Shown in pieces: positions 1 to 63,362 of a DNA stretch of 64,000 nucleotides. The DNA comes from Sphyrna mokarran. Taxonomy: Eukaryota. The position numbers and the translations under genes were made by a program. The DNA lies in contig JAGIQG010000010.1 of NCBI GenBank assembly GCA_024679065.1, forward strand, positions 56,358,001 to 56,422,000. Reading direction: 5' to 3'. The notes under the pieces are model-generated. The model was given only the letters and a program-made list of their open reading frames with translations, was not told where the DNA came from and did not search any database. The number at the start of each line of letters is the position of its first letter. The stretch's first letter is position 1.

Positions 1-2343
1 CTGAAAGAGCAATCAGTGAATAAAACTGTTCTTTTATGGTGTAATTAATGCAAAATTTGCTGGATTAAAGTCCTTGTACTCTTTGGTAATAGAGCACTGT
101 CCAGGCATCTTAACTGTGATCATTCATTATTATTGGTATGATGAAGTTTATGCCATAGAATCATTGAAATTTCAGCACAGTAATACCAATAATATCAGTA
201 CTAACACCTCATTGACATTATTTACTCATATTCTATTTTCTCACTCGTTAACACTGCTTTTCCATGTTCATTCTCCTTAAATGCTAATTTGATCCACTTT
301 GCAATGTTTTTATTGGCACTTGTTGTGAGAAGGTACTCCACATTCTAACAATCTTTCATTTTTGTGCTTTATTTTTATTCCAAGAGACTGCCTCAGTAGG
401 ACTGATTAGCAAGCAAATTGTCCAGCATGTACAAGTGCAATTCTTATCCTAGCTGAAATAGAATCGAAACCTGCATCCTCACTTTGCCTCTGAGAGTGAA
501 AGGCAATGGCAATAAACAACCACTGGCAAAAAGAAAACAGCTCAGGTAGAGCATATAATGAGTAAAAGTACTTTAATTGTCGAAAAAGAACTGGTGCACA
601 ATCTGGTGGATGGAATGTCATAAGCTACTACTGTCTTAAACACAATTATTGTTGTAACTCATTGTCGCTTTTTTAAACTTAAGTTGATTCTGTAAACATA
701 TTTATGACTTAGTTGTTTTCCTGAGTCTCTGATAAATGCATAATCTGTCTGAAGTAAGTGTGGGAGTGCAGTACAATGCTATAATCCACAGAGAGTATCA
801 CAACTGGGACAATTTAGTCTTGCTGGCATACATTGTGTAGGAGCAGAAAGTAAAAGGTTTAGATTTTAGCAACTCGATGTCTTTACAAACATTGTTGTTT
901 GGCAGTTGAATGTGCAAAAATCTCTGGAATAGGTCAGTAATCTCATCTGATGTATAAAGGCAGCTGATTAAGTAAAATAGGTTCATTTTAGATGCTATAG
1001 CAGAATATTAATAAAGCAAATTTGTAGGATGAAAGAGAACGTAAGTAATTTGGAGACTTGTGTGCGTGGAAGCATTTAATTCTGCAGTGCTAACCACTGC
1101 CAGTTTAATTAGAGATTAGTTGAAAGAATTTCAAAATTTGCGTCCAATGAGCAGAAATAAACATCACATTGTTTGGCAATAAAAGGAAGCAAAACCTGGA
1201 TAAAGCCCAGAGTACTAAAACAAGCATATTTTTGCATAATCCAAAATGGTTATTGTATGAAACGTTATTGGAATCACACTGTTCAAATTCCAAATTGAAA
1301 CTCCAAATTCAAAATTGCAATGGATAAATCAATGGACTCAAGTGGGAAACATAAAATGTTATGCAATTTCAAACTACTCTCAACAATAAATCAAAAAGTG
1401 CTTTAAGTAAAAACCTGCCCGAGTGAATGATCACCAAACTCCATTAACCACAATCAGACAAGCCAGATGTTGCCCTTTACCACCCCCATCAGTATCCCAG
1501 AGCTTGCATGAGAATGATCTGTGCCTGATTCAACAGTTTATCAAATTAACAAACTGGAAATGCCCTAATACACTCTCACACAGATTTCTTGAATTGTATG
1601 AGTAAAATAACTTGTTGCAGTAGGCTAGTTTGCCAGTTAGGCTATTCATCACACTGATACTCAAACAGAACCTATGTTCATTGCTACTTAAACTATGAAC
1701 TTTCACAACTCCCTTATGCCATCACAAAATTGTCTCACAATGGTTGTGAAGCCAGCATCTAATTCTTTTTTGTATCTGAGGTGACCTTGTTCTTACATGA
1801 AAGACCCTTCAAATATCAAATCTGTTAAAAGCTTTCTACTCAATTGTATTTTCTAAATCTGGACAGAGAGAAGTTTACAATTTTCATATGTAACATTGTC
1901 TTCTTATTTAATGATTATTACATAGATTGGGTTTGACAATCCCCTGCTCAGCAACTGTGGCAATAAGGTTAAGATAGCATATACTATTAGTCATTGAGGC
2001 CTAAGGTTTGTTGTGCACCTGTTAGCATGTGGGAGCACTGGTGGCATTGAGAACCTGCACATCAGATCCACTTCAAACAGCAAGAAAAATGATGAGACCT
2101 TTGTTATGTAAGGGTTTTGGCAACTATAGATGCTGAGATGAAGTGTGTATTTAAAATTGTTGTTAAATGGTGAGCCCGTTATTCTCTTTTCCTTGAAAGA
2201 GAGTATGAGAGTTGCATGAAGTAACTATGTGCTTATCAGCTATCTCATTTTTAAAAATTTCATAGTGCACTTCAGTTTCACCATTTTAGCTACTCACACC
2301 TTTTACAACTGAACTCCAGTTGTCATGTGTGGGAGCTGCAATT

Positions 2344-2695
2344 GAATCATAGAATCCCTGTGTAGAATCATAGAAAAATAGAATCCCTATGCTGCAGAAA
2401 TAGGTTATTTGGCCCACCGAGTTTGCAACAACTCTCAAAAGAGCATTCCATCCAGGCCTTATCCCCGTAACCCCACATATTTACTGTGGCTAAGCCACCG
2501 AATCAACATACCTTTGGACACTAATGGGCAATTTAGCATGGTCAAATCATCCAAATTGCACATCTTTGGATTCTAAAGAGCATTTAGCATGGTCAATCCA
2601 CCTAGCCTGCACATCTTTGGAATGCGGGAGGAAACCGGAGCACCTGGAGGAAACTCACGCAGACATTGGGACAAAGTGCAAACTACACATAGACA
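2344..2695 (-). mobile_element. HE1-type tRNA-derived SINE, 5'-truncated, with internal ~50-bp duplication
   Basis: (catagaa)n tail at left; HE1 core tttagcatggtca...gcacatctttgga present twice; ggaggaaaccggagcacc motif. Confidence 0.85.
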
Positions 2696-3504
2696 ATTGA
2701 TCTGTCTCTAAGTACAACCAATAAGTATTCCAAATGGTCATCATTTATTTGCTGGTTATGCAAATGAGGATGAATTGGATCAGTGGAAGATTGTGTCACT
2801 TAACTTTTGAGAACTTGAATTTTAAATATAAATCTGGTCATTCTAATGTTATGTTGCATTATACATTATCTTTCTTTAACATTTATTTATTTCTCACTTC
2901 CATAATTATGCATTGGATTCAACTAAACATGGTCAACAATTTTAATTTGCCACCTAACTATTTTCACTGAGTCAATCAAACTATGGAAATTGAACAAACA
3001 AACTCAAAGAAAATCCCTGAAAGCCTTGCAACAAGTAAATAGTCCACCTGAAAATTATTACTATGTTTCAGAATATGCTTAACAAGACAAAATAATAAGT
3101 TCTGAAGAACATTATTTCAAATCATAATTACTTCCGGAACTCAGTGGACCAAATAGCCTATTTCTGCACTGCAGGGATTCTATTTTTCTATGATTCCACA
3201 AAGGGGTTCTATGATTCAGTTGCAGCTCTCACACATGACAACTGGAGTTCAGTTGTAAAAGTTGTTAGTAGCTAAAATGGTGAAACTGAAATGCACTATA
3301 AAATTTTTAAAAATGAGATAGCTGGCTTTAGGCTTTCCCCACAAACAATAACCATTTGTCCACCGAGCTGGAGCAGCTTTCAAACTGAAAATCAATAATC
3401 TAACACTTGCTTGGATAAATGCAGCTCCAACAACACTCAAGAAGGTAGACTGGTACTTGGAATGAACGGATTGTCTGATGAGGGTAGTTCCAACAGTATG
3501 GACT

Positions 3505-3760
3505 TGTTACGCTTTTAGGACAGAGATGAGGAGAATGTTTTTTCTCTCAGAGGATTGTGTGATTTGGAACTCTGCCTCAGGAGATGGGGTCATTGTATTC
3601 TTGAAGACCAAAGTAGATAGATTCTTATTAGGCAAGAAAATTACAAGTTATTGGTATAGATGGGGATGTGGAATTAGAAACACAAGTAGATCAGCCATGA
3701 TATGAGTAAATAGCAAAGCAAGTTCAAAAATCCAAATGGCCTACTTGGACTCTTAGTTCA
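3505..3760 (+). mobile_element. CR1 LINE 3' fragment inserted in a decayed LINE fragment (approx. 3380-3450 and 3760-3830)
   Basis: FRTEMRRMFF..WNS..FKTKVDRFL ORF2 C-terminus followed by a CR1 3'UTR. Confidence 0.7.
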
Positions 3761-3861
3761 ACTTACACCATCCAGGACAAAGAAGTTTGTTTGATCAGTA
3801 CCCACTACAAAACTTTCATTCTCTCCTCCATAAGAATCCTTTGATAGGATCTTTCAGATAT

Positions 3862-5332
3862 ATAAGAACATAAGAACTAGAAGTGGGAGTAAGCCATCTA
3901 TCCCCTTGAGCCTGCTCTGCCACTCAATAGATTCAAGGCGGATCTTTTTGTGGTCCCAGCTCCACTTACCCGCCCATTCATCATAACCCTTAATCCTTTA
4001 CTATTCAAAAATTTATTTATCCTTTCCTTAAAAACATTTAATGAGGTGGCCTCAACTGCTTCACTGGGCAGGGAATTCCATAGATTCACAACTCTTTGTG
4101 TGAAGAAGTTCCTCCTCAACTTAGTCCTAAATTTATTTCCCCTTATTTTCAGGCTTTGCCCTCTCATTCTAGTTTCACCCGCTAGTGGAAACAACTTCCC
4201 TGCTTTTATTTTATCTATTCCCTTCATAATCTTATGCTTCTATAACATTTCCCCTCATTCCCCTGAATTCCAATGAGTATAGCCCCAGTCTACTCAGTCT
4301 CTGCCATAAGCCAACCCTGTAAGAATTTAGCAACACCAATTTTAAATCCAACCGATTTATTTGATAGTAAAATTGTGAGCTTTCAACACTCTGTGTCTTT
4401 GTCAGGCAAATGCAGTGTTCTGGTCTGCAATAGCACACATCAGCACAGACAGTCACAGATTGCTGAGTAGAATGCGAATCCTTACATCTAACCTGCTATT
4501 CAAGTGTTAAAGTGGCTAACAATGTGTGTGAAGGAAATCCTGAGCATTGGTTAGAGAATTGTGTATTTTCTCCAGACAACACAGTAAGTGAGGTTTTTTG
4601 CTAATCCAGGCAAGTTACGGGGGTTACAGATAGTGTGACATGAAGCCAAGATCCCTATTAAGACCGTCCTCATGTGTGCGGAACTTGGCTATCAGTCTCT
4701 GCTCAGCGACTCTGCGCTGTCGTGTGTCACGAAGGCCCCCTCGAAGAACATTTACCCGCAGGTCGGAGGCCAAATGCCATGACTGCTGAAGTGTTCGCCC
4801 ACAGGAAGGGAACTGTTTTGCCTGGTGAGCGATGCTCATTCATCCGCTGTCGTAGCGTCTGCATGGTCTCTCCAATGTACCATGCTTCGGGACATCCTTT
4901 CTTGCAATGTATTAGGTAGACTACGTTGGCCGAGTTGCAAGAGTATGTACTCTTGCCAACCCTCCCAACCCTGGAATCAACCTAGTGAATCTCCTCTGCA
5001 CCCTTTCCAGTGCCAGTATATTCTTTCTCAAGTAAGGAGATCAAAACTGTACACTTCTCCAGGTATGGCCTCACCAGAACCTTTTACAGCTGCAACATAA
5101 TCTCACTGTTTTTAAACTCCATCCCTCTAGCAATGAAGGACAAAATTCCATTTGCTTTCTTAATTACCTGCAAACCAACTTCTTGAGATTCCTGCACAAG
5201 GATACCCAGGTCCCTCTGCACAGCAGCATGTTGCAATTTTTTACCATTTAAATAATAGTCCATTTTGTTGTTATTCCTACCAAAATGGATGACCTCACAT
5301 TTACCAACATTGTACTCCATCTGCCAGAACCT
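3862..5332 (-). mobile_element. CR1/HER1 LINE 3' portion (RT C-terminal region), split by a Penelope insertion
   Basis: ORFs 5084-5320 (WQMEYNVGKCEVIHFG) and 3898-4227 (RRNFFTQRVVNLWNSLP); (ataagaac)n tail. Confidence 0.93.
4319..4954 (-). mobile_element. Penelope-like element (Neptune type), 5'-truncated: GIY-YIG endonuclease C-terminus plus 3' pseudo-LTR
   Basis: Minus strand reads SCNSANVVYLIHCKKGCPEAWYIGETMQTLRQRMNEHRS and RRVAEQRLIAKFRTHEDGLNRDLGFMSHYL*; flanked by TSD gccaaccct (4310-4318 / 4955-4963). Confidence 0.92.
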
Positions 5333-5737
5333 TTATGATCTACACTATCCAAAAGAACAAGGTCAACAGGCTACTGTCTATAAGTTCCCCTCCAAGTCAT
5401 ATACAATTTATGACTTGGAGGGGAACTAAATCACCATTTCTTCACTATTGTGGAGTCCAGGGCCTTAATAGGTTTAGTAAAAGAGATAATAGATCTAACA
5501 CTCTGCATTAGAGTAAAATCACATCTTAGTCAAATCCTATATCTCAAGGATTTGAGATCAACAGAACTCCCCAAGGTTGTTTGCTTGTTAGAAAAGCAGA
5601 TAGTTCCCAGCTAGAAGATTATACACAAGTTTAATAATAAACCTACGAAGGCAAGATCGGAATTTTAAAATAATGTTCTGTGTACTGATTAACTGTGGAC
5701 TATTTCTGTGACTTGGAGAAGAGAGTTGCATTATAAT

Positions 5738-6070
5738 GGGATGGCATGGTAGCACAGTGGTTAGCACGGCTGTTTCACAATCAGGGACCTGGGTTCAATT
5801 CCTGACTTGCGTCAGTGTTTGTGTGGAGTTTGCACATTCTCCTCGTGTCTGTGTGGGTTTCCTCCCAAAGTCCAAAGATGTGCGGGTTAGGTTGATTGGC
5901 CATGCTAAAAATTGCCCTTAGTTTCCTGAGATGCATAGGTTGGAGGGGTTAGCGGGTAAATATGTAGGGATAGGGGGGGGTTGTGCCTGGATGCAATTGT
6001 GGTTGGTGCAGACTTGATGGGCCTAATGCCCTCTTTCTGTACTGTAGGGTTTTTATGATACCTATGATTT
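5738..6070 (+). mobile_element. HE1-type SINE, near full length
   Basis: tRNA-like head with A box (agtggttagcac) and B box (gggttcaattcc), HE1 body, CR1-type tail. Confidence 0.9.
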
Positions 6071-11919: not shown

Positions 11920-12253
11920 TAGAACCATAGAATTATACGATCCCTACAGTGCAGAAGGAGGTCATTTGACTCATCAAGCCTGCACTGACAATAATCCCAG
12001 CAGGTCCTATCCCGATAACTTGATGTGTCTACCCTGCTAATCTCTCTGACACTAAGGGGCAATTTAATATGGTCAATCAGCCTAACCTGCAAATCTTTGG
12101 ATTGTGGGAAGAAACTGGAGCACCCAGAGAAATCCCACGCAGATATGAGGAGAATCTGCAAACTCCACACAGACAGCCATCCAAAGCTAGAATTGAACTT
12201 GGGCCCCTAGTGCTGTGAGACAGCAGTGTTAACCACCATGCCATTGTGCAACC
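11920..12253 (-). mobile_element. HE1-type SINE, full length
   Basis: Tail tagaaccatagaa, HE1 body, tRNA head ending cagcagtgttaaccaccatgccattgtgc. Confidence 0.9.
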
Positions 12254-13664
12254 TGATGATTATTCAAACCTACTAATTGTCATACAATTAACAGGTTTAA
12301 CAGCCCATTCATTGGTGCATTGCTATTCTTCTGTCTCTCTAGCAGGAAATGCGCTGGGCAGGCTTGGATGCTGGTAATGACCACTGCGGGCCTGCCCAGC
12401 TGGCCCCGGAAATCCAGGGGACCACCACCAACCTCTCAGCAAAGAGGGGCATCCCCACCTTGACAGGATATTCTGTCCACCCCTCCACTCTCCCTACCTT
12501 CCTCCCCTTCACATACACACACACACACATGCACACGCACACGCACATACACATACAACAGGCATGAGCTGACCCAATAAATGATTTCATTTCCTCTTTT
12601 GCAGACCACTTATTTCCTTTGAAAAACCAGAGCTGTCAATCAGGCTTAGAGTCTTTGTAAACATTGCTGTTAGGAGCACTTGAGATACATTCAATAGTGA
12701 AGAGAAAAGTAAATAAACACAGTTGACTGGCATTTAAGTAGAAATTAATTAAGTGTGAATGAAAGCCTATTTCAAAGCACTGCAGTTTGAAATTGATAGA
12801 GATCAAAGCTGTAAAATTCAATGGAGGGGATTTCAAAGTTTTCAGCTTGCTAAGAAGGCTCAGATACCTCAAATAAAAGTTGTGTGAACACATTATGGCT
12901 GAGTGAATAGCTGTGGAAAATGGAACACCCACTCCCCCCAATAATATTGACATTTCCTCTCTGTCAGAGGGCATCACTAGGATTTGCTTACACTTGCAGC
13001 TTCTGACAGCGAGAAAGGAAATTCCTGCTGCTTAAATGGATTGTTGCAGTGATTTAAAATCTTGCCAGGTGACCTGGAGGGAAGGGAGGTCAACACATTG
13101 CCCCAGCTCCAGTCCACTCAATCCTCAGGATTCTTGAAGAATAATTTCTCTACAGGCTGGCAGTTACAAATGGCACATGGGCACTGGACTTACCTCCTTG
13201 ACAGCCCCCTCCACCCTGCCATTTTGACCAAAGGTATGGGCCATTGTGTCATTGTCAAGGTGTCAGGGGCAGTGCACAATTGGTACTGTCGAGGCATATG
13301 GCCTGAAGGGGTGGGAGAGGGGTCATCAGTGGGAGTCTGAGGGGGGAGGGGGGAATGAGTGATGATCTGAATGGGAAGGGGGCTGGGAGGAAGGTGGGTG
13401 GTCTGAGGAAGAGATTGTTTGAGATTTTTACAAATTCCCTGTCCCTAGCTCCAATTTCTTTTCTCAGTCTTTTTTTTCATCATCCTTGCTGTCCACCCTC
13501 CTCTGTTTCTTCTTCAGGTGATTTTTGTGTAGCAAGTATTACAAAGAAGAAGAATTAGTAATTTAAAACTAGTATAAAAGTAAGCCAATTATTTCTGTTG
13601 GTTTCATAGTAACTTCACCAGTATCAATATCTTCCTACTACATAGCCTCAGAATGTGACTATTG

Positions 13665-16029: not shown

Positions 16030-16520
16030 TAGACTGAGACAAGTGGGCCACAGTCTTATACATTGGAATACACAGAAAATAGGCCATCCATAAACAATGG
16101 ACACTCTCTGGTCAAGTATACTTGTTTATCAGACAAATGGGGACCTTAACCCCTTACTTGGAAGGGAAATATGTGGCCTATGTACCTCCAGCACCCACAG
16201 GCATGCTGCTAGATACACACTCCGAAATCAGTGTGGCAGCACCCAAAATAATCAAAGGATAAAGGTGCTACATAACACACTATCAGCAGTAGTGCCTCTA
16301 GAGACCATGAGGGATGACCCTGGACCATCCAGGGGAGAAGAAGGAAGAACAGACCAGACCCAGAAGAAGAGGATCAGACCAGACTAAAGTCCAGACCGTA
16401 CTGAGGAGATTGCAGGGACCAACAGATGGATACAGGCCAATATCTGCTTGGGTACTTGTTAATCACTCAAAGTTAAGTTAAAGTCCAGTGTTAAGTTGAA
16501 TCCTGATTGTTCTGTAAAAT
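16030..16520 (+). mobile_element. Possible LTR fragment
   Basis: LTR-like composition with cagacc repeats; no clear TG..CA ends. Confidence 0.3.
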
Positions 16521-16522
16521 TA

Positions 16523-16743
16523 TAGAATCATAGAAACCCTACAGTACAGAAAAAGGGTATTTGGCCCAACCAGTCTGCACCGACCGTAATCCCACCCATG
16601 CCTTACCCCCATATCCCTACATATTTACCCACTAATCCTTCTAACCTATGCATCTCACAACACCAACATTAAGGCTGATCAACCCAATCTGCATATCTTT
16701 AGACTGTGGGAGGAAACGCATGCAGACACAAGGAGAATGTGCA
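16523..16743 (-). mobile_element. HE1-type SINE, 5'-truncated
   Basis: tagaatcatagaaaccctacagtacagaaa tail and HE1 body. Confidence 0.85.
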
Positions 16744-17601: not shown

Positions 17602-18714
17602 AGGCCCAATTTTACCATTTTCATTCAAAGTGCCGAGTCTCTGCATAGTACAGATCCGACTTAAAAATCCGCTTTCAGACATTCCCATATGCTCTCAGCC
17701 ATCTCCAGTCCATTCACGCTGTGAACGGGGTTTAGTGCTGCCAGAATGATCGGAGCTCTGAACTGCGCATGCGCAGTTAGAAAAAAAAATTGGTAAAAGC
17801 ATGCCCACGTAGATTGCTCCCAAGCCACAGAAAGCAGAGAAAGCGGCCCAGGAGCGAGAGTGTAGAGAGTGTATCTCATGGGGGTGGGGGATAAGAGGGA
17901 AGCGGTTAAGATCTTGGGGGGGGGGGGCAGTTGGAATTCTGGGGGGGGTTGCAGGGGGGTCCACTGCCACTCTGCAGGTGATTGGTGGGGGAGGAGGGCA
18001 GCAGGGGTGGCGATCGGTCTGTATAATGGGGGGGTAGGTAAGGTGGGTAGTGATGTGTGCGTGTGTCCTTTATCCAACCCCAACTATCCACATATATCAC
18101 TGCCCCACTTATCCACTCCCCACTACCCAGACCGATTGCCATCCCTGTCCCCCTAGTCCCCCCACTGATCACCCGCAGAGTGGCATAGGACCCTCCTGCC
18201 CCCCCACGACATCTGCCCTCCCCATCTGAGATCCATCTGACCTGCCTCCCCCTCCTCCTCCCCTCAACCAGACAACGATTTGACTTCACGCCCCTCCTGC
18301 CCCCTCCAACCAGAGAATGAACTGACCTGCCTCCACCCCTATCCTCACCACTGATCTGATTCAGAGAGCCGTTGGAAACAATGAAGGCTCTCTTCAGAGG
18401 CTGAAGCACCTGACTCAGACTTTTATTTAGCATACCTTTTAGGCATAGTTCCAGATCGATGAACATGGCTGTAAAGTGAGAAATGCTGATAGAGTTGGAT
18501 GGGCAGTTCATAAATGCATTTGAATGCATTTAAATTGAATTAAAATCATCGTTACACCCAAATTGGATGCAGAATGGATCCCACCCATTCTCATGTCTGG
18601 GTAAAGTTACGATCTGCTTGGACTTGGTTCCAGATTGCGATAAAGGCCTCACACCTCACTTTAACACAATTTCGCGCCTCAAAACAGGCACAAATTGTTG
18701 GTAAAATCGGGCCC
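17602..18714. mobile_element. Harbinger-type MITE
   Basis: TIRs ggcccaattttacca ... tggtaaaatcgggcc; G-rich then C-rich internal inverted repeat. Confidence 0.8.
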
Positions 18715-34734: not shown

Positions 34735-36970
34735 ATCAGCACACCTGCAAGTTCTCACTTGCTTTCCTCTCAATGCTAACACAGGTGCACACGGAAGATT
34801 GGGAAATGCCAGATATCTCCGCTTGGGATCTGGAAAGAATGGGCTGCATGGAAATTTAGAGCAGCCATCAATTTGACAGCCATCGAAAGTGGGTGTCTCC
34901 CTCGCCTCTCAGGTTGCACAGGTATTGCAGGTCTCCTTTCAGAGTCAGAGACACACGGGTGGCCCACAATGTCCCACATCTATTTGAAGGACATTCATAC
35001 ATGGAACTGATGGGGTCTCTGTTCTCTCCTTCTCCTACTCTGGGAGGCGAAAGAGGCGATTGCAGGCGATTGATCTTCAGGTCATCGTTGGTTACAGGTA
35101 TAGTGCCGGAAGACTGGAGGATAGCGAATGTGGTCCCATTGTTCAAGAAGGGGAATAGAGACTTTCCTGGGAATTATAGACCGGTGAGTCTTACTTCTGT
35201 TGTGGGCAAAGTATTGGAAAGAATTATTAGGGATAGGATTTCTAGTTATTTAGAGAGAAACGAATTGATTGGGGATAGTCAGCATGGTTTTGTGAAGGGT
35301 AGGTCGTGCCTTACTAACCTTATTGAGTTTTTTGAAAACGTGACCAAAGAGGTGGATGGGGGTAAGGCAGTTGATGTGGTATATATGGACTTTAGTAAGG
35401 CGTTCGATAAGGTGGCCCATGGAAGGCTTCTGCAGAAAATGCAGATGTATGGGATTGAGGGTGATTTAGCTAAGTGGATTAGGAATTGGCTAGCAGATAG
35501 AAGACAGAGGGTGGTGGTTGATGGGAGATATTCATCGTGGAGTTCGGTTACTAGTGGTGTACCTCAGGGATCTGTTTTGGGGCCCCTGCTGTTGTAATTT
35601 TTATAAATGATCTGGATGAGGGTATTGAAGGATGGATTAGTAAATTTGCGGATGACACCAAAGTCGGAGGAGTTGTAGATAGTGAAGAGGGGTGTTATAG
35701 TTTGCAGAGAGACTTGGACAAGTTGCAGAGCTGGGCCGAGAGGTGGCAAATGGAGTTTAATGCGGAAAAGTGTGAGGTAATTCACTTTGGCAGGAATAAC
35801 AAATGTGTAAAGTATAGGGCTAATGGTAGGATTCTTAAAAGTGTTGAAGAACAGAGGGATCTTGGTGTATATGTGCATAGATCCCTGAAAGTTGGCAATC
35901 AAGTCGATAAGGTTGTTAAGAAGGCATATGGAGTCTTAGCTTTTATTGGTAGGGGATTGAATTTCGGAGCCGCAACGTCATGTTGCAACTGTACAAAACT
36001 CTAGTGCGGCCGCACTTGGATTATTGTGTACAGTTCTGGTCCCCGCATTATAAGAAAGATGTGGAGGCATTGGAGAGGGTACAGAGGAGGTTTACCAGGA
36101 TGTTGCCTGGTGTGGAAGGCAGGTCTTATGAAGAGAGGCTGAGGGGTTTGAGGTTGTTTTCGTTAGAAAGAAGGCGGCTAAGAGGAGACCTTATTGAAAC
36201 ATATAAGATGATTAGAGGTTTAAATAGGGTGGACAGTGATAGCCTTTTTCCTAGGATGGAGAAAGCTAGCACGAGGGGACATAGCTTTAAATTAGGGGGT
36301 GGTAGTTATAGGACGGATGTCAGAGGTAGGTTCTTTACCCAGAGGGTGGTAAGGGTATGGAATGCCCTGCCTGCTGCAGTTGTAGATGCGCCAAGTTTGG
36401 TGCGTTTAAGAGGTTAGTAGATAAGTTTATGGATGAAAAGGGAATGGTTTAGGTTAGAGGGTCATTGCTTTTTCTTAATTGGTCGGCGCAACATCGAAGG
36501 CCGAAGGGCCTGTTCTGCGCTGTAGTGTTCTATGTTCTATGATCTATGTTCTACTCTGGTTGAATGGCAGGTACCTTCTGTCTTTGGTGGTTGTCTCCCT
36601 CTGGTCCTGGAAGTGGTAAGACCTGGGCCTCCTGTACTCGCAATTCTTCGTCTTGCTCCTCCTCCTCAGCTCCAGCAGCAACCAAAAGAATACTAGATCT
36701 ATTGGTTGCATAGGAAAAGCCATGTTGTCACACTGAAGGGGAGGGGTGGGAGGAAGGGCGATGAAAAGAAACACATGTAGAGGTTAAGGATTGCTGCCTG
36801 CCCCTAGAACATCAGCAGTCACTGTCCAAATCCACCAATTCCCCCAACCACATGCTCCTTACAATCACAGATCTAATCTCCCACCCCCCAGTTCCCCAGC
36901 CACATACTCGCCTCATGCCCAACTTTACCAAGCCTGAAAATGGGCGCAACTTGATGATAAAATCAGACCC
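34735..36970 (-). mobile_element. Second Harbinger element fragment (transposase N-terminus) split by a young CR1
   Basis: Minus strand 34776-35060: RPHQFHV*MSF..GRHPLSMAVKLMAALNFHAAHSFQIPSGDI; TIR gggtctgattttatc ending at 36970. Confidence 0.75.
35077..36553 (+). mobile_element. Young 5'-truncated CR1/HER1 LINE; RT nearly intact with two 1-bp frameshifts
   Basis: GIVPEDWRIANVVPLFKKG..YMDFSKAFDKV..GVPQGSVLGP..KFADDTK..WQMEFNAEKC..FFTQRVV; (ttctatg)n tail. Confidence 0.97.
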
Positions 36971-37369
36971 ATTGTCTGAGGACGCAGTTGCAGTTGGATG
37001 GATATGGCACTTAAAGAGGAATTTACTGACTTAATGTTTAAATAATGTTTTGAATACTAAAAGTAAATGCAAGATAAACTAATTCATCTATGTATAAACA
37101 TAAAGCATAAATGTAGTTAAAAGTAATGAAATATTCAGTATTTGTGATTTTTTTTATTTTGTAGTGAGGTCAAGCAGACACAGTGATGGACAGTAACAGA
37201 GAGAAGATAAAGTTTTGATTGGTGGCAATTGGTGTTGTGGGGAATGGTATTAGGTAAGGCAATTATTGAAATCCCTGCTAGACAGGGCTGTCTGCTTCCT
37301 TCATATTTTTCTTCCTTCTTCTCCTCCTCATGATCCTACACCTGAACTGCAGCAGCATACAGTTCTTTG

Positions 37370-37690
37370 AATCATTGAATCCCTACAGTGCAGAAGGAGG
37401 CCATTCAGCCCATCTAGCCTTCATGGACAACAATCCGACCCAGACCCTATCCCTTAGCCCGAGGTATTAACCCTGCTAAAATCCCCCTAACCTACACACC
37501 TTGGGATCCGATGGGCAATTTAGCATAGCCAATCAATCTAACTTGCACACCTTTGGCTGTGGGAAGAAACTGGACCACAGGAGGAAAACCACACAGACGT
37601 GGGGAGAACATGCAAACTATACACAAGCAGTCAACCGAGGCTGGAATTGAACCCCTGGTGCTGTGAGGCAGTATGTGCCACCGTGCCATC
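37370..37690 (-). mobile_element. HE1-type SINE, full length
   Basis: Tail, body and tRNA head (ggaattgaaccc; tgtgccaccgtgcc). Confidence 0.88.
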
Positions 37691-37870
37691 CACAGCAAGG
37701 ATTGTTCCTACGTAATGGTGAGATTGTGCAGCAAGTTAGAATGAATCTTGACACATGGTCTACCAAGTACTTTAACATTCCAGCAGTGCAGTTCAGGCTG
37801 CAAAAATGTTGTTTCAACACACCAATGCCTTATTGTGTTTCAAATAGCTGCATTGCTTACACTGTTATAT

Positions 37871-48050: not shown

Positions 48051-49189
48051 GCTCAACCTTGCAGATCTGGAGCTAACTGCAGCAAAAAATCAAAAGTGAT
48101 GATGGGGTTAAAGTCATTGATATTGACGTGAATGATGGGTTGGAAGGACAGGGTCACTACTGATCACATTGAGATCCTGTAAGGAGAACTTAGAGTGCTG
48201 CTAGCAGAGAAACTGGTCATAGTCACAGAGAGGCATTGGATTCCATCAGTAGGCAGTCAATGTCATGCTGGGTTAGTCAAAGGTCTGGTAAGGCGGAGCA
48301 CTGAGAGAGACTGAACAAAAAGGTTTAATGACAGGATAGTTTAATATCAAAGTGACAGGATAGGTATAAGCATGGAGGGAAAGATGGCATGACCGGTTCA
48401 ATTGTTACAGTATCCAGAGATATGTGAGGAGTTTCAAGGCTCATAGGAGGAAGGTGCAAGATTTTATTGGGAGGGTGACAGGAAAAACATGAAGGTAATA
48501 GGATGAGGATTCTTCCCCTGCTGTGGTGAGAATCTTTATGTTGCCAATCCATCCCATCTTGGTTCATTCACAGGCATCATGTACAACATGTCAAGTGATG
48601 CCTAACGACCTATCTATATGCATCTCCTTCACATATACTGGCCTGTCAGTCGCATGTTGCATCCAAACACACATAAAAACCAAACCTTCACGTACTTTGG
48701 CCTCATGAGCCATGTGGTATCTAGGAGATCATACATTCACCCACCAGGCATCGATGCCTACTTGCGAATATAAATTTTTGATGACCCCACCCTTTGTTAA
48801 GATGTAATACTGACAATTATCCCGATAATAGGTAACAGGTCATTGGCCCATTTCCTGCATCAGATCTAGGTTCCCATATAGTTTCTACACTTGCTTACTT
48901 CCTGTGCACCTATATCCAGGCCTTGACAAGGTGGAAGGGTATTTTGATACCATCTGGAGGAAACAGGACCTGCTGCGATTCACTAATGGCCTCTCGGGGA
49001 TGGGGGGGAGGAGGAAACTGCAAACAGGCATCACTAAACTATGGGCTTTGTCTCCATCTGTTATCAGACATTGGAGTGATGATGGAAAATTCATAATAAT
49101 GATAAGAGTGGTGATCTCTGAAATGGTGAGGATGGGGGAGTTGAGGAAGGTTGGGAGGTGGGTGATTTTAACTAGCATCCCTTTGAGGA

Positions 49190-50230
49190 AGACATTAGTA
49201 ATCCTCAAAAAGAATATGGACAGGTTAAATGAGTGAGCAAAAAATTGGCAGATGGAGTATAATGTGGGAAAATGTGAAATTGTCTACGGTGACAAGAAGA
49301 ATAGAAAAGCAGCATGTTAGGTTTTTTGGCTCATATCAAGTGTAGGATTGATCACAAGATCGGGTGTGATGCTTGTTCATGCCAGCTTGCATTATATATG
49401 TCTCTTTTGTGGGGACCATGAATTGAATTCAATTTAAATTTGAATTATTTTTTGGAGCAAGCAAGGAGTTGGATTAAGGAGTTGTCCTGAACATGCTACA
49501 CATTGGCTTTGTAACTTTGAGAAAGGAATACATTTCTTAAAGAACAATTCGGTGGTACAGAGTGACTAAAGCGTTCTGGCTCATGGATCACAATGTTCTG
49601 GTGCAGCAAGTGATTAGAGGAAGTTAATGGAATGTTGGCATTAATTGCAAGGAAAATCAAGTATAAAAATATGGAAGTTTTGCTGCAGTTGTACAGAGTG
49701 TTGGTTCGACCACACCTGGAGCACTGCTTACAGTTTTTGTCTCCTTACTGAGAAAAGGATATAATTAACAGCAGTTCAGAGAAGGTTCACTTGACTTGAT
49801 TCCTGGGGTATTCCTGATTATTTCATGAAGAGAGATTTGATAGGTTGGGCAATTTTGAAGAATGGGAGATGGCTTTATTGAAATATATATCATTCTGAGG
49901 AGCTTGACAGAGTGGATGCTGGGGGATGTTTCCCCTTGTGGGAGGAGATAAGGGAACACAATTTAAAAATAAGGAGTCTTCATTCAAGATAGAAGTGAGT
50001 AAATGTTTTCTCTCTGAGGGCTGTCAATTTGTGAAATTCTGTTCCACAGCAAGTAGTAGAAGCACAGCTATTTTTTGTTAAGGTTTGGTCAAATAAATCC
50101 TTATTCAACAAGGGAGTCAAAGATTAGAGAGAGCAGACAGGAAAATAGAATCCGGGGTATTACCAAACCAACCATGCTCTTATCAAATGGCAGACCAGGC
50201 TCGAGGGGTCAAATGGCCTGCTCCTTATGC
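49190..50230 (+). mobile_element. CR1 3' portion hosting a U2-derived insertion
   Basis: WQMEYNVGKCE..LVRPHLEH..3'UTR gctcgaggggtcaaatggcct. Confidence 0.85.
49321..49530 (+). mobile_element. U2 snRNA-derived retroposed element (pseudogene or SINEU-like)
   Basis: ttttggctcatatcaagtgtag matches U2 5' TTTTGGCTAAGATCAAGTGTAG; Sm site attttttgg followed by agca; ggagttggattaaggagttgtcc resembles U2 stem III. Confidence 0.75.
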
Positions 50231-50296
50231 AAAGTTTTGTTTATATGTTTGTTTGTAACAGCTTCTGATAACAAGTACATAAATGAATAACATAAT

Positions 50297-51367
50297 GGGC
50301 CTGAATTTTCATAGAGTAGCAATCATTCTGAAATCTGTATCTTAAAATCTTTCTAACCCTTTATCATCCAAACTTCCAACTCAGGACAACCAAGAACGGT
50401 GCAAAACCACATGTTCTCATTAAGGGCTGCTGCTGAGAGCTTTAGAGTTGGATGCAAGAAGATCACACCCCTTTGTTTACAGCACTGGTTGCCATAAATC
50501 AGTTAGATTTAAATGTAGGGTGAAGATAGGTTTGTCAGGTAAATGTTCAGAATTTGTTGGGGGTTGGGGTGGGGGTTTGGATACTCATGAGGACAGTGGC
50601 AGTTGGGGAGGAAGAGAGTTGGGCAGTTGGCAGCGAAGAGGGGGAGGTCACGTAATGCCTAGGTTGATAGGCTGGGGTTGGGGTAATTTCCAGAGGGGAT
50701 TATACTTGGAAAATGGGGTTCACTGTTGGAGGGAGTATTTTGGAGGGAGTAATTGGGGAGTGGAGGATGGTTGGGGTGGGATTACCTTGACGGAGGAAGT
50801 CCTGTGGGAAGGGGAAGGATAGTTGGAAAGTCCCATTGGGTGTGGAAAGTCAGAGATTTTGTAGGAGACCAGTTGGCAGGGAGGAGGGGGGAGTGGCAGG
50901 TATCCCTTGGAGGTTAGTAGTCCCATGGGGAAGGGTTAGTCAGAAGGCAGGGGGGTGTCCTGTGAGGGAGTGTATTCAGGAGTTTTGGGGAGTCCCATGG
51001 AGGGTTGGTTGTAAGGGGGTGGGGGAAGTCCCTGGGAATTAAGGGATATGGGGAGGCCTGAGGGTGGTTGGTATGGGTCACTACAATAGAACAACAGAAT
51101 ACCTAGAAGATAGAAGTGATTTTAATTCTTCTAACTTTATCTATGTAACTTATTGATGAAAGAAGTTCAGAACCATTTGCAGTTTGCAACTTAAATCACT
51201 TTTACTGATACTTCCCAGTTCAGGAAAATTGTCCTTTAAAAGTTTGCACTCCTGGGTAATTACAGTGTAAACTTTATCTGGGGACTTCTGGGAAGAAGGG
51301 GTACTCCTTGACACATTTTTGAAGTACCCCTTAGTTACACTGCCCTGAAGCATGGAAGTTATGGCTC
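50297..51367. mobile_element. Harbinger-type MITE with G-rich interior
   Basis: Imperfect TIRs gggcctgaattttcata / catggaagttatggctc. Confidence 0.65.
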
Positions 51368-54500: not shown

Positions 54501-54509
54501 CTTCCTGGA

Positions 54510-55434
54510 CATAGAACATAGAACATAGAACATTACAGCACAGAACAGGCCCTTCAGCCTTCAATGTTGCGCCGACCAATATAAAAAGCAATGCCCCTCC
54601 AAACTAAACCATTCCCTTCTCTTCCATATACTTATCAACTAACCTCTTAAACGCCACCAAACTTGGCGCATCTACAACTGCTGCAGGCAGGGCATTCCAC
54701 TCCCGAACCACCCTTTGGGTAAAGAACCTACCTCTGATATCCGTCCTATAACTATCACCCCTTAATTTAAAGCTGTGTCCCCTCGTGCTAGCTTTTTCCA
54801 TCCTAGGAAAAAGGCTATCACTGTCCACCCTATCTAAACCTCTAATCATCTTATATGTTTCGATCAGGTCCCCTCTTAGCCTCCTCCTTTCTAACGAAAA
54901 CAACCTCAAATCCCTCAGCCTCTCCTCATAAGACCTGCCCTCCATACCAGGCAACATCCTGGTAAACCTCCTCTGTACCCTCTCCAATGCCTCCACATCT
55001 TTCTTATAATGTGGGGACCAGAACTGCACACAATACTCCAAGTGCGGCCGCACTAGAGTTTTGTACAGTTGCAACATGACGTTGCGGCTCCGAAATTCAA
55101 TCCCCCTACCAATAAAAGCTAAGACTCCATATGCCTTCCTAACAACCTTCTCGACCTGACTGCCTACTTTCAGGGATCTATGCACATACACACCAAGATC
55201 CCTCTGTTCATCTAGACTATTAAGAATCCTACCATTTGCCCTATACTCTACACATTTATTATTTCTGCCATAGTGCATTACCTCACACTTTTCCACATTA
55301 AACTCCATTTGCCACCTCTCGGCCCAGCTCTGCAACTTGTCCAAGTCCCTCTGCAAACTATAACACCCCTCTTCACTATCTACCACTCCACCGACTTTAG
55401 TGTCATCTGCAAATTTACTAATCCATCCTTCAAT
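54510..55434 (-). mobile_element. Young 5'-truncated CR1/HER1 LINE with an uninterrupted 260-aa ORF2 C-terminus (54604-55386)
   Basis: Near-identical to 35620-36553; (catagaa)n tail. Confidence 0.97.
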
Positions 55435-59810: not shown

Positions 59811-61636
59811 ATACTTCTCTTATGTTTCAATTTAAAATACTTACTCAAAGGAAACTACACTTTAATGCATCCCATTTTATCATAATTTAGTACTTTTTCT
59901 TCCCACATTTAATTATTTCTCAGTGCCGATTTATCAACCTGGTTTTAACCTTTCCACCTAGGTACTTCACCTCATATGTCCTATCTTGCATGACGTTGCT
60001 ATTTTTTTCAGCCAAGCATTCTTATCTCTTGCCTTTCGTTCTCCCTTTCCAATAAAGCTTGGTTGAGGTTGTTATTTCATAACTGTTCTCTACAGTGAGT
60101 TTCTGCTCCATTTCATTTCTCTGAACTAAATCAAGCAATGATTCTTTTATTGATGATGAGAGACATACTGATTCATGATGCAGTGAGCAATGTGTTGCCC
60201 ATTTTGATTATATTCTACTTTTATTTTATTTCATCTTTGGATATATAAAATTGCTCAATATTATTGCCCTATTCCAGTTGTGTCCAATACATTAGTCATG
60301 TTAGCTGCAAATTGGCAATCCAGATAAGGCTAATTACATTTTTGAAAGAACTGCAATGGACGATGTCACTGGAGCAATGACTACTCATTTACCTTCAACA
60401 GACTGCATCTTATTGCGTGGGAGAAGTGGTGCGGATTGTACCATGCTACCTATCACCCCACATTCATCCCTGCCCTCACACATCGCCTTCCCAACACCCA
60501 GAAAGGAAAATCAGCTAAAAGCAAACATAACCAAATCAAACTTGTCCTACAGCCAGAAAGAGATTGACAATGGGCTGAATTGATTGAGAGTGGAACCCTC
60601 TTCTCACTGTGCAATTTGACTGGGTAGAAGCTCTAACAGTTCCAATAGCATCAGAGCTCAATAATGGGCTCTGCAGGAAGGAGCATGAAGAAGAACATGG
60701 CTGAGTGATAAAGGAAAATCACGGCATTTCAGGGCTGGAAGTGGTCCTAAAGCAAAGGAAGGGTTAGAGGTAGGGGGTTTGACAAATAACTCAAGCATTC
60801 AGTGAACCTCTATATGACCTTGCACTCCCTTCCTTGCTCCCCTTTTTCACATAGACCCGTAAAAAACAACTTGGACTCCTGTCCATCTGCACATGCCAGC
60901 AGTATAATGGCATGAGCAATCTACTATCCGGGTCAATAGGCTAACAAATTTAATTGACATATAGTTATTCATTAACATACAGCGGGTGGCTTGTTGATTT
61001 TGGCACCCTCCCCATAATAGATTCTGGGGTTCAGCTCGGGGGTGGGCAGGACCGTGGTGGGTTAGGCAACTAATCTATTTTATAAGTGCCTCTCCCTTCC
61101 CGCCCACTGTAAATACGCTTGTAAATCCAGTCCAATGTGTATCTCACAATTTTGTGGTTTGTTAGTAAGGTGATAAGAAAAGCTAAGTGCAAGTTTTTTA
61201 TTGTTGTGACTTCCTTAGTTACTGAATGATGGAGATTTTGTTGGTACTTGCCAGTATTGTTTGAGTTGATGTTATGGTTTTTGCTAAAATGAATTTACAT
61301 GGCTAAACTCATATTGCTGTTTCTGTGAGAATGACAATATCTACAATTCTCTTTCTTTTCAAGAAAAACAGGTGGCTAACCAGGGATTTCTACTGGACAA
61401 TACATCTTATTGTCTCCCCCTGTTTTGTACCATAAACCTTTTTATTGAACCAAATATATTTCACTGCCAAAAGATCTGAAATGTTATACAACAAGAAGTG
61501 GTTCCTCAATTGCCCTTTATTGCCATTATAAGATTAACATGGAGTCATTAGCTTGCAAACAGTATATAAGTAAAGATATTTAACTATTATTTGTCTTGAT
61601 AACCTGCCATTGGGTAATACAGTCAAGGAAAAATAA

Positions 61637-61938
61637 TAGAATCCCTCCAGTGCAGGACAAGGCCATTTGTCCATCAAGCCTGCGCTGACAACCATCCCAC
61701 CTAGACGTATCCCCGTAGCTCTACGTATTTACCCTGTTAGTTCCCCTGAGACTAAGGGGAAATTTAGCATGGGAATCAACCTAACCTACACATCTTTGAA
61801 GTGTGGGAGGAACCAAGAGCACCTGGAGGAAACTCATGGACAGAATGCACAAACTCCATATAGATAGTGTCCCAGATTTGAATCCGGATCCTTACTCAGT
61901 GAGACAGCAGTACTAACCACTGTGCCATTGTGCCATCC
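61637..61938 (-). mobile_element. HE1-type SINE
   Basis: Tail, body and head cagcagtactaaccactgtgcc. Confidence 0.88.
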
Positions 61939-63362
61939 ATAGAAAGAAATGATTTCTGAGGAAAGATGCAAAGGTAGAAGACAACTGAACAAGTATGTTG
62001 CCTGTGTAAATTGCTTGGAGATTAACTAATCTAATTAGACTAGCAATACAATAGTCTCTCTTAACTCACTGATGACTTTAACACACAATAAACACTGAGA
62101 ATAGCAGCATCCTATTTGTTAACCATTTCCATCCTGATTATGTCTTAATGCCAGAACCTATGCAATCTTTATCTAACACAATAATGGAATTCTTCGAGGA
62201 AATTTTCCCCGGGTTAGACCATGAAAAGGTCTGTTGACCTCAGGCCAGATATTTCGGTTTTGGGGCAAGATCAGCCAGAATATCCCATTCTTCATGTCAT
62301 TTGCCATCTCTTTCCCATTATCCCCATCCATAAAAAGGTTGCAATCAGAAATATAACCTCTCTGATTATTTAACAACAAAAGTGAGAATTATATTTCATT
62401 TAGAATTTTCCTGGGACTTACATGATTAACTTTTGTACCAGTGATATGATCAATGGGGCTACTGGACAGCAATTCAATTTATAATATTCTTAAAGTAAAT
62501 TTAATTGTTTCATTGCAGTAAGGATTTTATGCACAATGGCTGCCATGCAAAGTTTCTAATTAGCAGTTTTGAAACTGAGAGAAAGATTGGTTGTAGCAAA
62601 TCTCTTTTATTGTCACACAGCAGAGATCAACACATTGCAGTATTTAGGCAGCAATTTGCAGTTCTAAACAGATCACGTATTTCCCAAATGGACAGTAAAG
62701 GACGAAAACATGTTGCTTCCTTCTCATTCCCTTTCCCCTGCCCTTTGTCCTTGTGTTGCTAGTATAACTAGATAAGCAGTTAAACTCCAACCAGCTTATA
62801 CAGGCAAATTGATCAGAGATCTTCTTTGTAACTTTGTTGGAAATCACCTGTCCTTTCTATTCCTTTTCCTTGGCCATATATCCCAATGCAGGTTAACATA
62901 TTAGGACAGACAAAAAAACAAAATTTGCAAGCAAATTAATTAATGTTAATCTTACAATGGAATAAAGGACAACTCAGGGACCATTTCTTGTTTTGCAACT
63001 TTTCTGATGTTTTAGAGAGTAAAGTATATTTGGTCCTCCAAAAGGTTTATGGGACAAAACCTCAATATTTGGCAATTTGCTTATCATCTGACTAGGAAAT
63101 GTATTTTAAAAAGTATTGTTATTGTCAGGTGAGAAATATTAAAAGTGTCCCTTTCTTTTTCTACTCAGTTGTTTACAACAGTGTTTGTTTTTAACAGTTC
63201 AGTGAATATTTAACTATTTTAAGTGCCATGTCTGTAAAAGGTGCACAGAGGTAGGTTTTCTTGTAAGTTTTTTTTAAAGAAAGGGAATAGGATTTATTAA
63301 CTTAACACCCATTCTAAATCAAAACAATAAAAAATGTTTCAGCTTTCACACACACATAATTT

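Follow-up and report, generated by a model that had tools for sequence, protein, structure and literature searches.

The window, by which we mean the whole 64-kb stretch of DNA analysed here, contains a segment collinear with vertebrate U2 snRNA (window 49320-49533, U2 nt ~9-186, ~71% identity by pairwise alignment) that is probably one old and decayed member of an abundant family of non-autonomous retroposons derived from nearly full-length U2 snRNA. Several block changes relative to U2 were fixed before amplification and are common to dispersed contigs in four sequencing runs, so that the segment almost certainly belongs to a multi-copy U2-derived family and is not a lone pseudogene. The unit itself is probably a short retroposon that ends at the U2 3' end.

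U2 homology, anatomy and the CR1 insertion site

On sequence comparison the homology of the element to U2 is real despite a sub-threshold Rfam score. The reference for the alignment was L015, a vertebrate-type U2 gene from public contigs that was found by scanning with the 5' motif of the window itself. Positions 49318-49513 agree with L015 nt 9-160 at 106/149 positions (71%), and under looser scoring the alignment reaches U2 nt 186 at 118/167; transitions account for 26/43 of the mismatches between the element and L015. Downstream of the search seed L015 ranks first among the U2-seeded sequences (score 55 versus 43 for the runner-up), and this score, which 0/3000 shuffles reach, exceeds the highest value among 1266 window tiles (32.5), bearing out the collinear U2 similarity claimed in a preliminary description of this DNA. 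The Rfam model proposed there as a check (RF00004) gives the element no more than 20 bits against a gathering value of 46 (E 0.043 when 301 nt were scanned), while U2 was absent from an 11-kb Rfam scan at E<=1 and no window match reached gathering. The check therefore failed at its threshold while pairwise alignment upheld the homology, making the Rfam test too strict. Matches to FuFi-1, sR2 and snoMBII-202 in the 11-kb scan all lay far under gathering and were set aside, as was a snoU2-30 match (E 0.13), which lies antisense to this U2 stretch and is uninformative.

Table 1. Features of the U2-derived element and of its CR1 host (window coordinates)
Feature	Position	Strand	Evidence or remark
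Whole U2-derived element	49320..49533	+	~215 nt; Rfam, pairwise alignment, contig alignment
First U2 piece, nt 9-36/39 (stem I and branch-pairing regions)	49318..49348	+	23/28 to L015, core 20/22
24-nt insertion after GTGTAG	49349..49372	+	final 17 nt repeat U2 nt 23-39 in degenerate form
U2 stems IIa and IIb region (nt 40-87)	49373..49419	+	11/16 and 17/24
AT-rich expansion of short units ahead of the T-run, exceeding U2 by 17 nt	49420..49448	+	family-diagnostic
Sm-site-like T-run	49447..49455	+	letter A at 49447
4-nt local duplication, then U2 stem III region (nt 107-142)	49456..49495	+	stem III 23/36
U2 stem IV remnant, ~8 nt of loop IV gone	49496..49533	+	3' end of the family match
CR1 ORF2 3' fragment left of the insertion	49180..49319 (start approximate)	+	translation; CR1 copies; repeat-level depth 49208-49309
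T/A-rich junction: short tail or resumed CR1	49534..49545	+	junction alignments
CR1 ORF2 end and 3' region right of the insertion	49546..50230 (ends approximate)	+	translations, self-matches to other CR1 copies, depth

The architecture of the element (Table 1) includes the discrete insertions previously claimed after GTGTAG (24 nt) and before the T-run (17 nt), together with a further insertion of 4 nt after the T-run. The core of the first U2 piece served as the search seed, and the Rfam consensus matches this core independently (20/22). The piece ends at or beside the insertion site of Keno and Utopia retrotransposons, between U2 nt 38 and 39. Within the 24-nt insertion, the final 17 nt match U2 nt 23-39 at 11/17 positions with all 6 mismatches being transitions (binomial P 1.8e-3) and lie in register with the downstream body, indicating that the head is doubled; taken whole, the insertion has a likeness to U2 reached by ~1% of shuffles. 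The first piece is weakly closer to U2 than the body is (23/28 versus 81/124; Fisher P 0.11, or P 0.02 for the seed core), a result that suits a plain tandem duplication no less than the fresh addition of a 5' piece. In the central region the stem IIb hairpin still folds by computation. Runs of T6 lie at 49322 and 49448, and no Pol III A or B box was found in this one decayed copy by exact match to the consensus.

At the 3' end, positions 49496-49533 align to U2 143-186 with an 8-nt deletion at a score reached by 3/20000 shuffles and by 9/9099 window stretches, and the earlier claim of a non-U2 3' end has to be abandoned; the last 21 nt taken alone match U2 weakly (484/20000 shuffles). Nor is the claimed retention of the branch-site and Sm motifs confirmed. 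The branch-pairing hexamer is altered in both head copies. At 49447, the one letter of the claimed Sm site covered by the 40 of 230 variant rows listed, G makes up most of the depth in four runs (7780/10656, 7044/8887, 3126/3943 and 6032/6271), so that this site may not be a family feature. A functional U2 gene is contradicted by the score below the gathering value of 46, by the altered hexamer and by the deletion of loop IV, and given the latter two changes the family RNA probably did not function as U2.

The element interrupts a CR1 ORF, as had been described: 2/3 in-window CR1 copies align up to 49319 and then stop, and the CR1 reading frame picks up again near 49546. Since CR1 is continuous on both flanks, it is the target of the insertion and not a fused tail. 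Among named eukaryotes, the sequences closest to a better-preserved CR1 ORF of the window come from sharks and rays (68-72% identity), with birds and turtles mostly at 45-58%, which makes the host an elasmobranch, either shark or ray. The distance from 49319 to the next conserved CR1 motif is 31 nt in two CR1 copies versus 19-24 nt in the window, so the right junction, whose flank aligns out of register, lacks at least 7-12 nt of CR1. The missing nucleotides may reflect truncation of the target or a later deletion, and such a deletion could also have taken away a tail. At the junctions of this copy no target-site duplication was found, and the one old copy present in the window has no poly(A), with no run of >=4 A in 49318-49560. 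Self-comparison of the 64-kb window found no second copy of the element; a 25-nt match at 18528-18552 proved on inspection not to be one. An empty CR1 site was not seen among the joints listed (15 of 304).

Other repeats were observed in the same window. Two CR1 3' fragments (35624-36549 and 54509-55434) are 93% identical, carry long open frames and are far younger than the CR1 host. Reverse transcriptases resembling the window CR1 were also encountered on contigs of ~1.6 kb assigned to Klebsiella pneumoniae (P0002, 74%) and Proteus mirabilis (P0015, 64%), both of which are probably vertebrate DNA contaminating bacterial assemblies. HE1 is a SINE of cartilaginous fish with a tRNA-related head, Pol III boxes and a LINE-like tail, and a dispersed repeat of ~350 nt whose copies are 65-78% alike (5726-6069, 11920-12267, 16511-16743, 37353-37720 and 61632-61968) resembles an elasmobranch tRNA-derived element of this HE1/V-SINE type. 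Two inverted pairs, with arms ~0.6-0.7 kb apart (2237-2423/3138-3324, 91% identical; 53611-53760/54308-54459, 89% identical), are candidate non-autonomous DNA transposons.

Dispersed copies, age and alternative origins

Contigs of four runs from four studies were aligned to window positions 48800-50300 at 80% likeness, and the longest 32 of 27058 contig pieces and 40 of 230 variant rows were listed. Run X1 is probably the source of the window DNA, or very near to it, and was used for paralogs and not as independent support for the locus. Among the 32 listed pieces, 21 overlie the element and are neither its own contigs nor clear orthologs (one, X6 record 27, is possibly orthologous). Both central insertions are spanned by all 21 of these pieces, 8 of which are gap-free and none of which has more than 9 gap letters, in line with the earlier preference for a multi-copy family over a simple pseudogene. 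The listed non-orthologous pieces mismatch the element at 12-19.5% of positions, a floor given the 80% cut. Over the same spans canonical U2 attains only 37-40% ungapped, the best of 134 U2-seeded sequences reaches 53/130, and no 31-nt stretch of the window that starts at or after 49349 matches U2 at more than 21/31. This likeness is too low for true U2 genes to account for the depth.

The listed pieces also suggest a common end, with 15/21 stopping at 49527-49535, where U2 itself ends. Twelve of the 15 extend for another 122-1271 nt that do not align to the flanking CR1 and are at single-copy depth, while the other 3 stop there since the contig ends. Summed depth relative to unique flank is 2286-4191 at 49426, 566-965 at 49469 and 82-88 at 49495 in three runs, for comparison with 1521-2504 at 49236 in CR1 (three runs). 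Depth ratios do not give copy numbers as such, and AT-rich sequence underlies the peak at 49426; the ratios are read as a family size of hundreds to thousands in that sense. Among the 40 of 230 variant rows listed, the majority letters equal U2 at 6/9 comparable positions, suggesting that the family master was nearer to U2 than the window copy is. The majority is the U2 letter at 49382, 49393 and 49394, and the U2 letter is found in other copies at 49368, a position covered by only 4, 7, 3 and 3 other contigs in the four runs. Among the 32 of 27058 pieces listed, none except the orthologs crosses the first U2 piece.

Orthologous contigs cross both junctions in run X4 and the left junction in run X6, at 6-9% mismatch. 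These orthologs place the insertion, including in X4 the doubled head, before the split of the taxa concerned, and the insertion into the CR1 fragment precedes the split of at least three sampled taxa. The paralogs differ by 12-20%, indicating that the amplification burst is older still than the insertion. Run X15 carries the family and has no clear ortholog of the window locus. In this run (organism E), depth relative to CR1 over 49361-49462 is ~2.5-4x greater than in the other three runs, an excess that is absent over the 3' part of the element and perhaps reflects a younger or differently ended subfamily.

Family-specific patterns gave no match in prokaryote genomes or viral contigs, as expected, and a metagenome scan with the U2 5' motif returned U2 genes with no family copy among the matches listed. 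Separate observations were made in these searches. Four IMG/VR contigs (L001-L004, 1753-1862 nt) carry a near-exact stretch of ~29-37 nt from the 5' stem and branch-pairing region of U2 (~401-440, minus strand), which in L001 and L002 lies between the converging ends of Circo_capsid and Rep-type helicase ORFs and in L002 scores above the Rfam U2 gathering threshold (49.7 bits, E 3.5e-8). The U2-like stretch in these circovirus-like genomes is possibly a U2 mimic or an antisense element, and no report of it was found in the literature. Two identical-looking metagenome U2 genes (L070 and L120) have an intron-like GC...AG insert of ~63 nt within the branch-pairing region, placed just after the matched motif and with a branch-like motif near its 3' end. 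The insert is reminiscent of the introns of mRNA type that occur in fungal snRNA genes.

Several alternative origins of the amplified copies were weighed. It is unlikely that the dispersed copies are processed pseudogenes of a cellular master, namely a U2-variant small RNA gene specific to the lineage and equipped with its own snRNA promoter, a relation of the kind that holds between BC1 and the ID elements. Such a gene is suggested by the near-full-length U2 including its 3' end, the absence of a visible LINE-derived tail, the folding of stem IIb and the shift of 6/9 comparable majority letters towards U2, but the deletion of loop IV and the altered branch-pairing hexamer argue against it. 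Moreover, neither of the two sub-regions inside the family match folds better than shuffles do (z -1.26 and 0.62), and no conserved master locus was seen in the contigs aligned to 48800-50300.

It is also improbable, and slightly more so, that the window copy lacks the body of a longer element, a Tx1 LINE or a SINE of greater length, for which the U2 part serves as 5' head. Tx1 families with U1 or U2 heads exist (PMC4494074, accessible text), CR1 bases are missing at the right junction, and the 3/15 pieces that stop at 49527-49535 by contig end could do so on account of a common downstream sequence. Against such a body, the matches stop where U2 ends. Because 5' ends are usually truncated in retrotransposition, LINE heads are also expected to be rare, yet the depth of the element is of the order of that of the CR1 ORF.

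It is very improbable that a U2 fragment was spread by a MITE or a DNA transposon or was multiplied as satellite DNA. The element does match itself weakly in fold-back orientation (positions 49365-49502; 61.5% over 143 columns; E 0.002), and the region as a whole folds at z -2.06. The arms of the fold-back, however, are 74% complementary and lie inside the element instead of at its termini, collinearity with U2 runs from end to end, and the listed copies lie in long contigs at single-copy depth. Finally, a solitary U2 retropseudogene of ordinary, decayed type whose indels are its own, for which the sub-threshold Rfam score, the heavy transition and CpG decay and the lack of a second copy in the window could be cited, is already contradicted by the indels common to many non-orthologous contigs in four runs and is hardly credible.

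Relation to SINEU and to other retroposons

The closest known system is SINEU of crocodilians, with which the element is compared here by description and not by consensus, and from the accessible parts of the sources. SINEU-3 consists of the 5' 32 bp of U2, a ~50-bp internal deletion and the middle 83 bp of U2 (Kojima 2015, PMC4494074), followed by a ~40-bp non-U2 3' end and poly(A), with targeting of Mariner-N4 and ~1,600 copies (PMC4494074); Kojima accepted it as a family because its copies have a structural change in common (PMC4494074). The element resembles SINEU-3 in being apparently short and essentially U2 only, in having structural changes common to its copies, in the internal oligo-T and lack of an internal promoter, and in its thousands of copies, a figure taken here from depth. 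In contrast to SINEU-3, the element keeps U2 nt 40-87 and has insertions in place of the ~50-bp deletion, ends in U2 stem IV with no poly(A) seen, and has as its target a CR1 of elasmobranch type. On these descriptions the element works like SINEU, and most like SINEU-3, yet is not SINEU-3.

Of the features that characterize SINEU as a class, the element has the U2-derived 5' part, structural changes common to many copies, and oligo-T with no Pol III promoter. The window copy, at ~215 nt, would fit a short SINEU-type unit of <500 bp with a defined 3' end, and 15/21 listed pieces end at 49527-49535, but a common tail may have been lost from this copy. A 3' poly(A), present in all SINEU groups according to the accessible text (PMC4494074), is absent from the one old copy in the window. 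The earlier description of the element as a SINEU-like SINE stands as regards a multi-copy U2 family; as a SINE in the strict sense, with promoter, LINE partner and tail, the element is at most putative. SINEU-1, SINEU-2 and Tx1-Mar elements with U1/U2 heads show recurrent 5' snRNA addition or partial duplication that resembles the doubled head, whereas neither the long non-snRNA 3' body of SINEU-1 nor the U1 plus U2 composition of SINEU-2 is seen in the element (PMC4494074, accessible text).

Other systems share fewer features with the element. Keno (a Tx1 element) and Utopia both insert into U2 between nt 38 and 39, the position at which the first U2 piece of the element ends (PMC4640811, accessible text). 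Unlike these retrotransposons, the window locus contains no ORF or element remnant. Reptile Utopia insertions have 20-bp duplications with downstream U2 resuming from nt 39, whereas the repeat of the element (nt 23-39) lies upstream of the site (PMC4640811, accessible text). As a candidate Keno/Utopia scar, the break coincides with the 38/39 position, but the bases between are mostly U2-like. Ordinary U2 retropseudogenes and snRNA-LINE chimeras likewise represent U2 RNA copied into a new site, but arise independently and have no block indels in common, unlike the element family (PMC4494074, accessible text). SacSINE1 and the CmiSINEs are also non-autonomous retroposons of the same host group; unlike in the element, their heads are tRNA-related and carry Pol III boxes, and their tails are LINE-like (PMC5499810, accessible text).

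The differences from SINEU in structure, tail, host and target, as taken from descriptions, suggest that the family probably originated independently of crocodilian SINEU, a possibility raised in the preliminary description. SINEU was not detected outside crocodilians according to the accessible text of Kojima 2015 (PMC4494074), which leaves the mode of transcription open. No description of an snRNA-derived SINE of cartilaginous fish was found in a literature that covered few subscription journals and apparently no Repbase Reports, and the accessible parts of PMC5786205, PMC5381603, PMC7922186, PMC4758252, PMC5499810, PMC12946260 and PMC10787021 do not mention one. The family may already exist as a consensus in Repbase or Dfam.

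Proposed amplification and its significance

In the model that we favour with some reservation, one or a few master loci would have carried the remodelled U2 and driven its amplification. U2 genes are transcribed by Pol II from promoter elements that lie upstream, with no promoter inside the gene (PMC4494074, accessible text), so masters derived from it would need an upstream Pol II promoter. This promoter could be the original one of U2 or one borrowed by landing in a U2 gene, since a family copy that landed between nt 38 and 39 would gain both a promoter and a new U2 5' end. Alternatively, the extra 5' piece could come from a template switch onto U2 RNA at the same position. The master RNA would then be copied in trans by a LINE reverse transcriptase, while ordinary dispersed copies such as that in the window would be dead on arrival. 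Crocodilian SINEU has been credited to Tx1 elements that cluster with Keno (PMC4494074, accessible text). For the family described here a Keno-like Tx1 element is our best guess at the partner, and a tentative one, suspected from the point at which the extra 5' U2 piece stops, namely the Keno/Utopia site.

A more far-reaching possibility, which we regard as doubtful at present, is that sharks or rays harbour an independently evolved, very abundant U2 retroposon family whose masters sit on a real snRNA promoter, provided either by a remodelled U2-like small RNA gene or by copies inserted in U2 genes at the Keno site. If true, masters on snRNA promoters would answer how promoterless snRNA-derived SINEs get transcribed. 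Because the family is common to several species and keeps nearly the whole of U2, its masters, subfamilies and partner LINE should be traceable in existing assemblies, which would make the promoter question testable. For elasmobranch phylogeny the family offers presence/absence markers, and its copies would account for spurious U2 annotations in elasmobranch genomes. An abundant U2-only family of different build in a second lineage of vertebrates would mean that retroposons derived from snRNA originate repeatedly.
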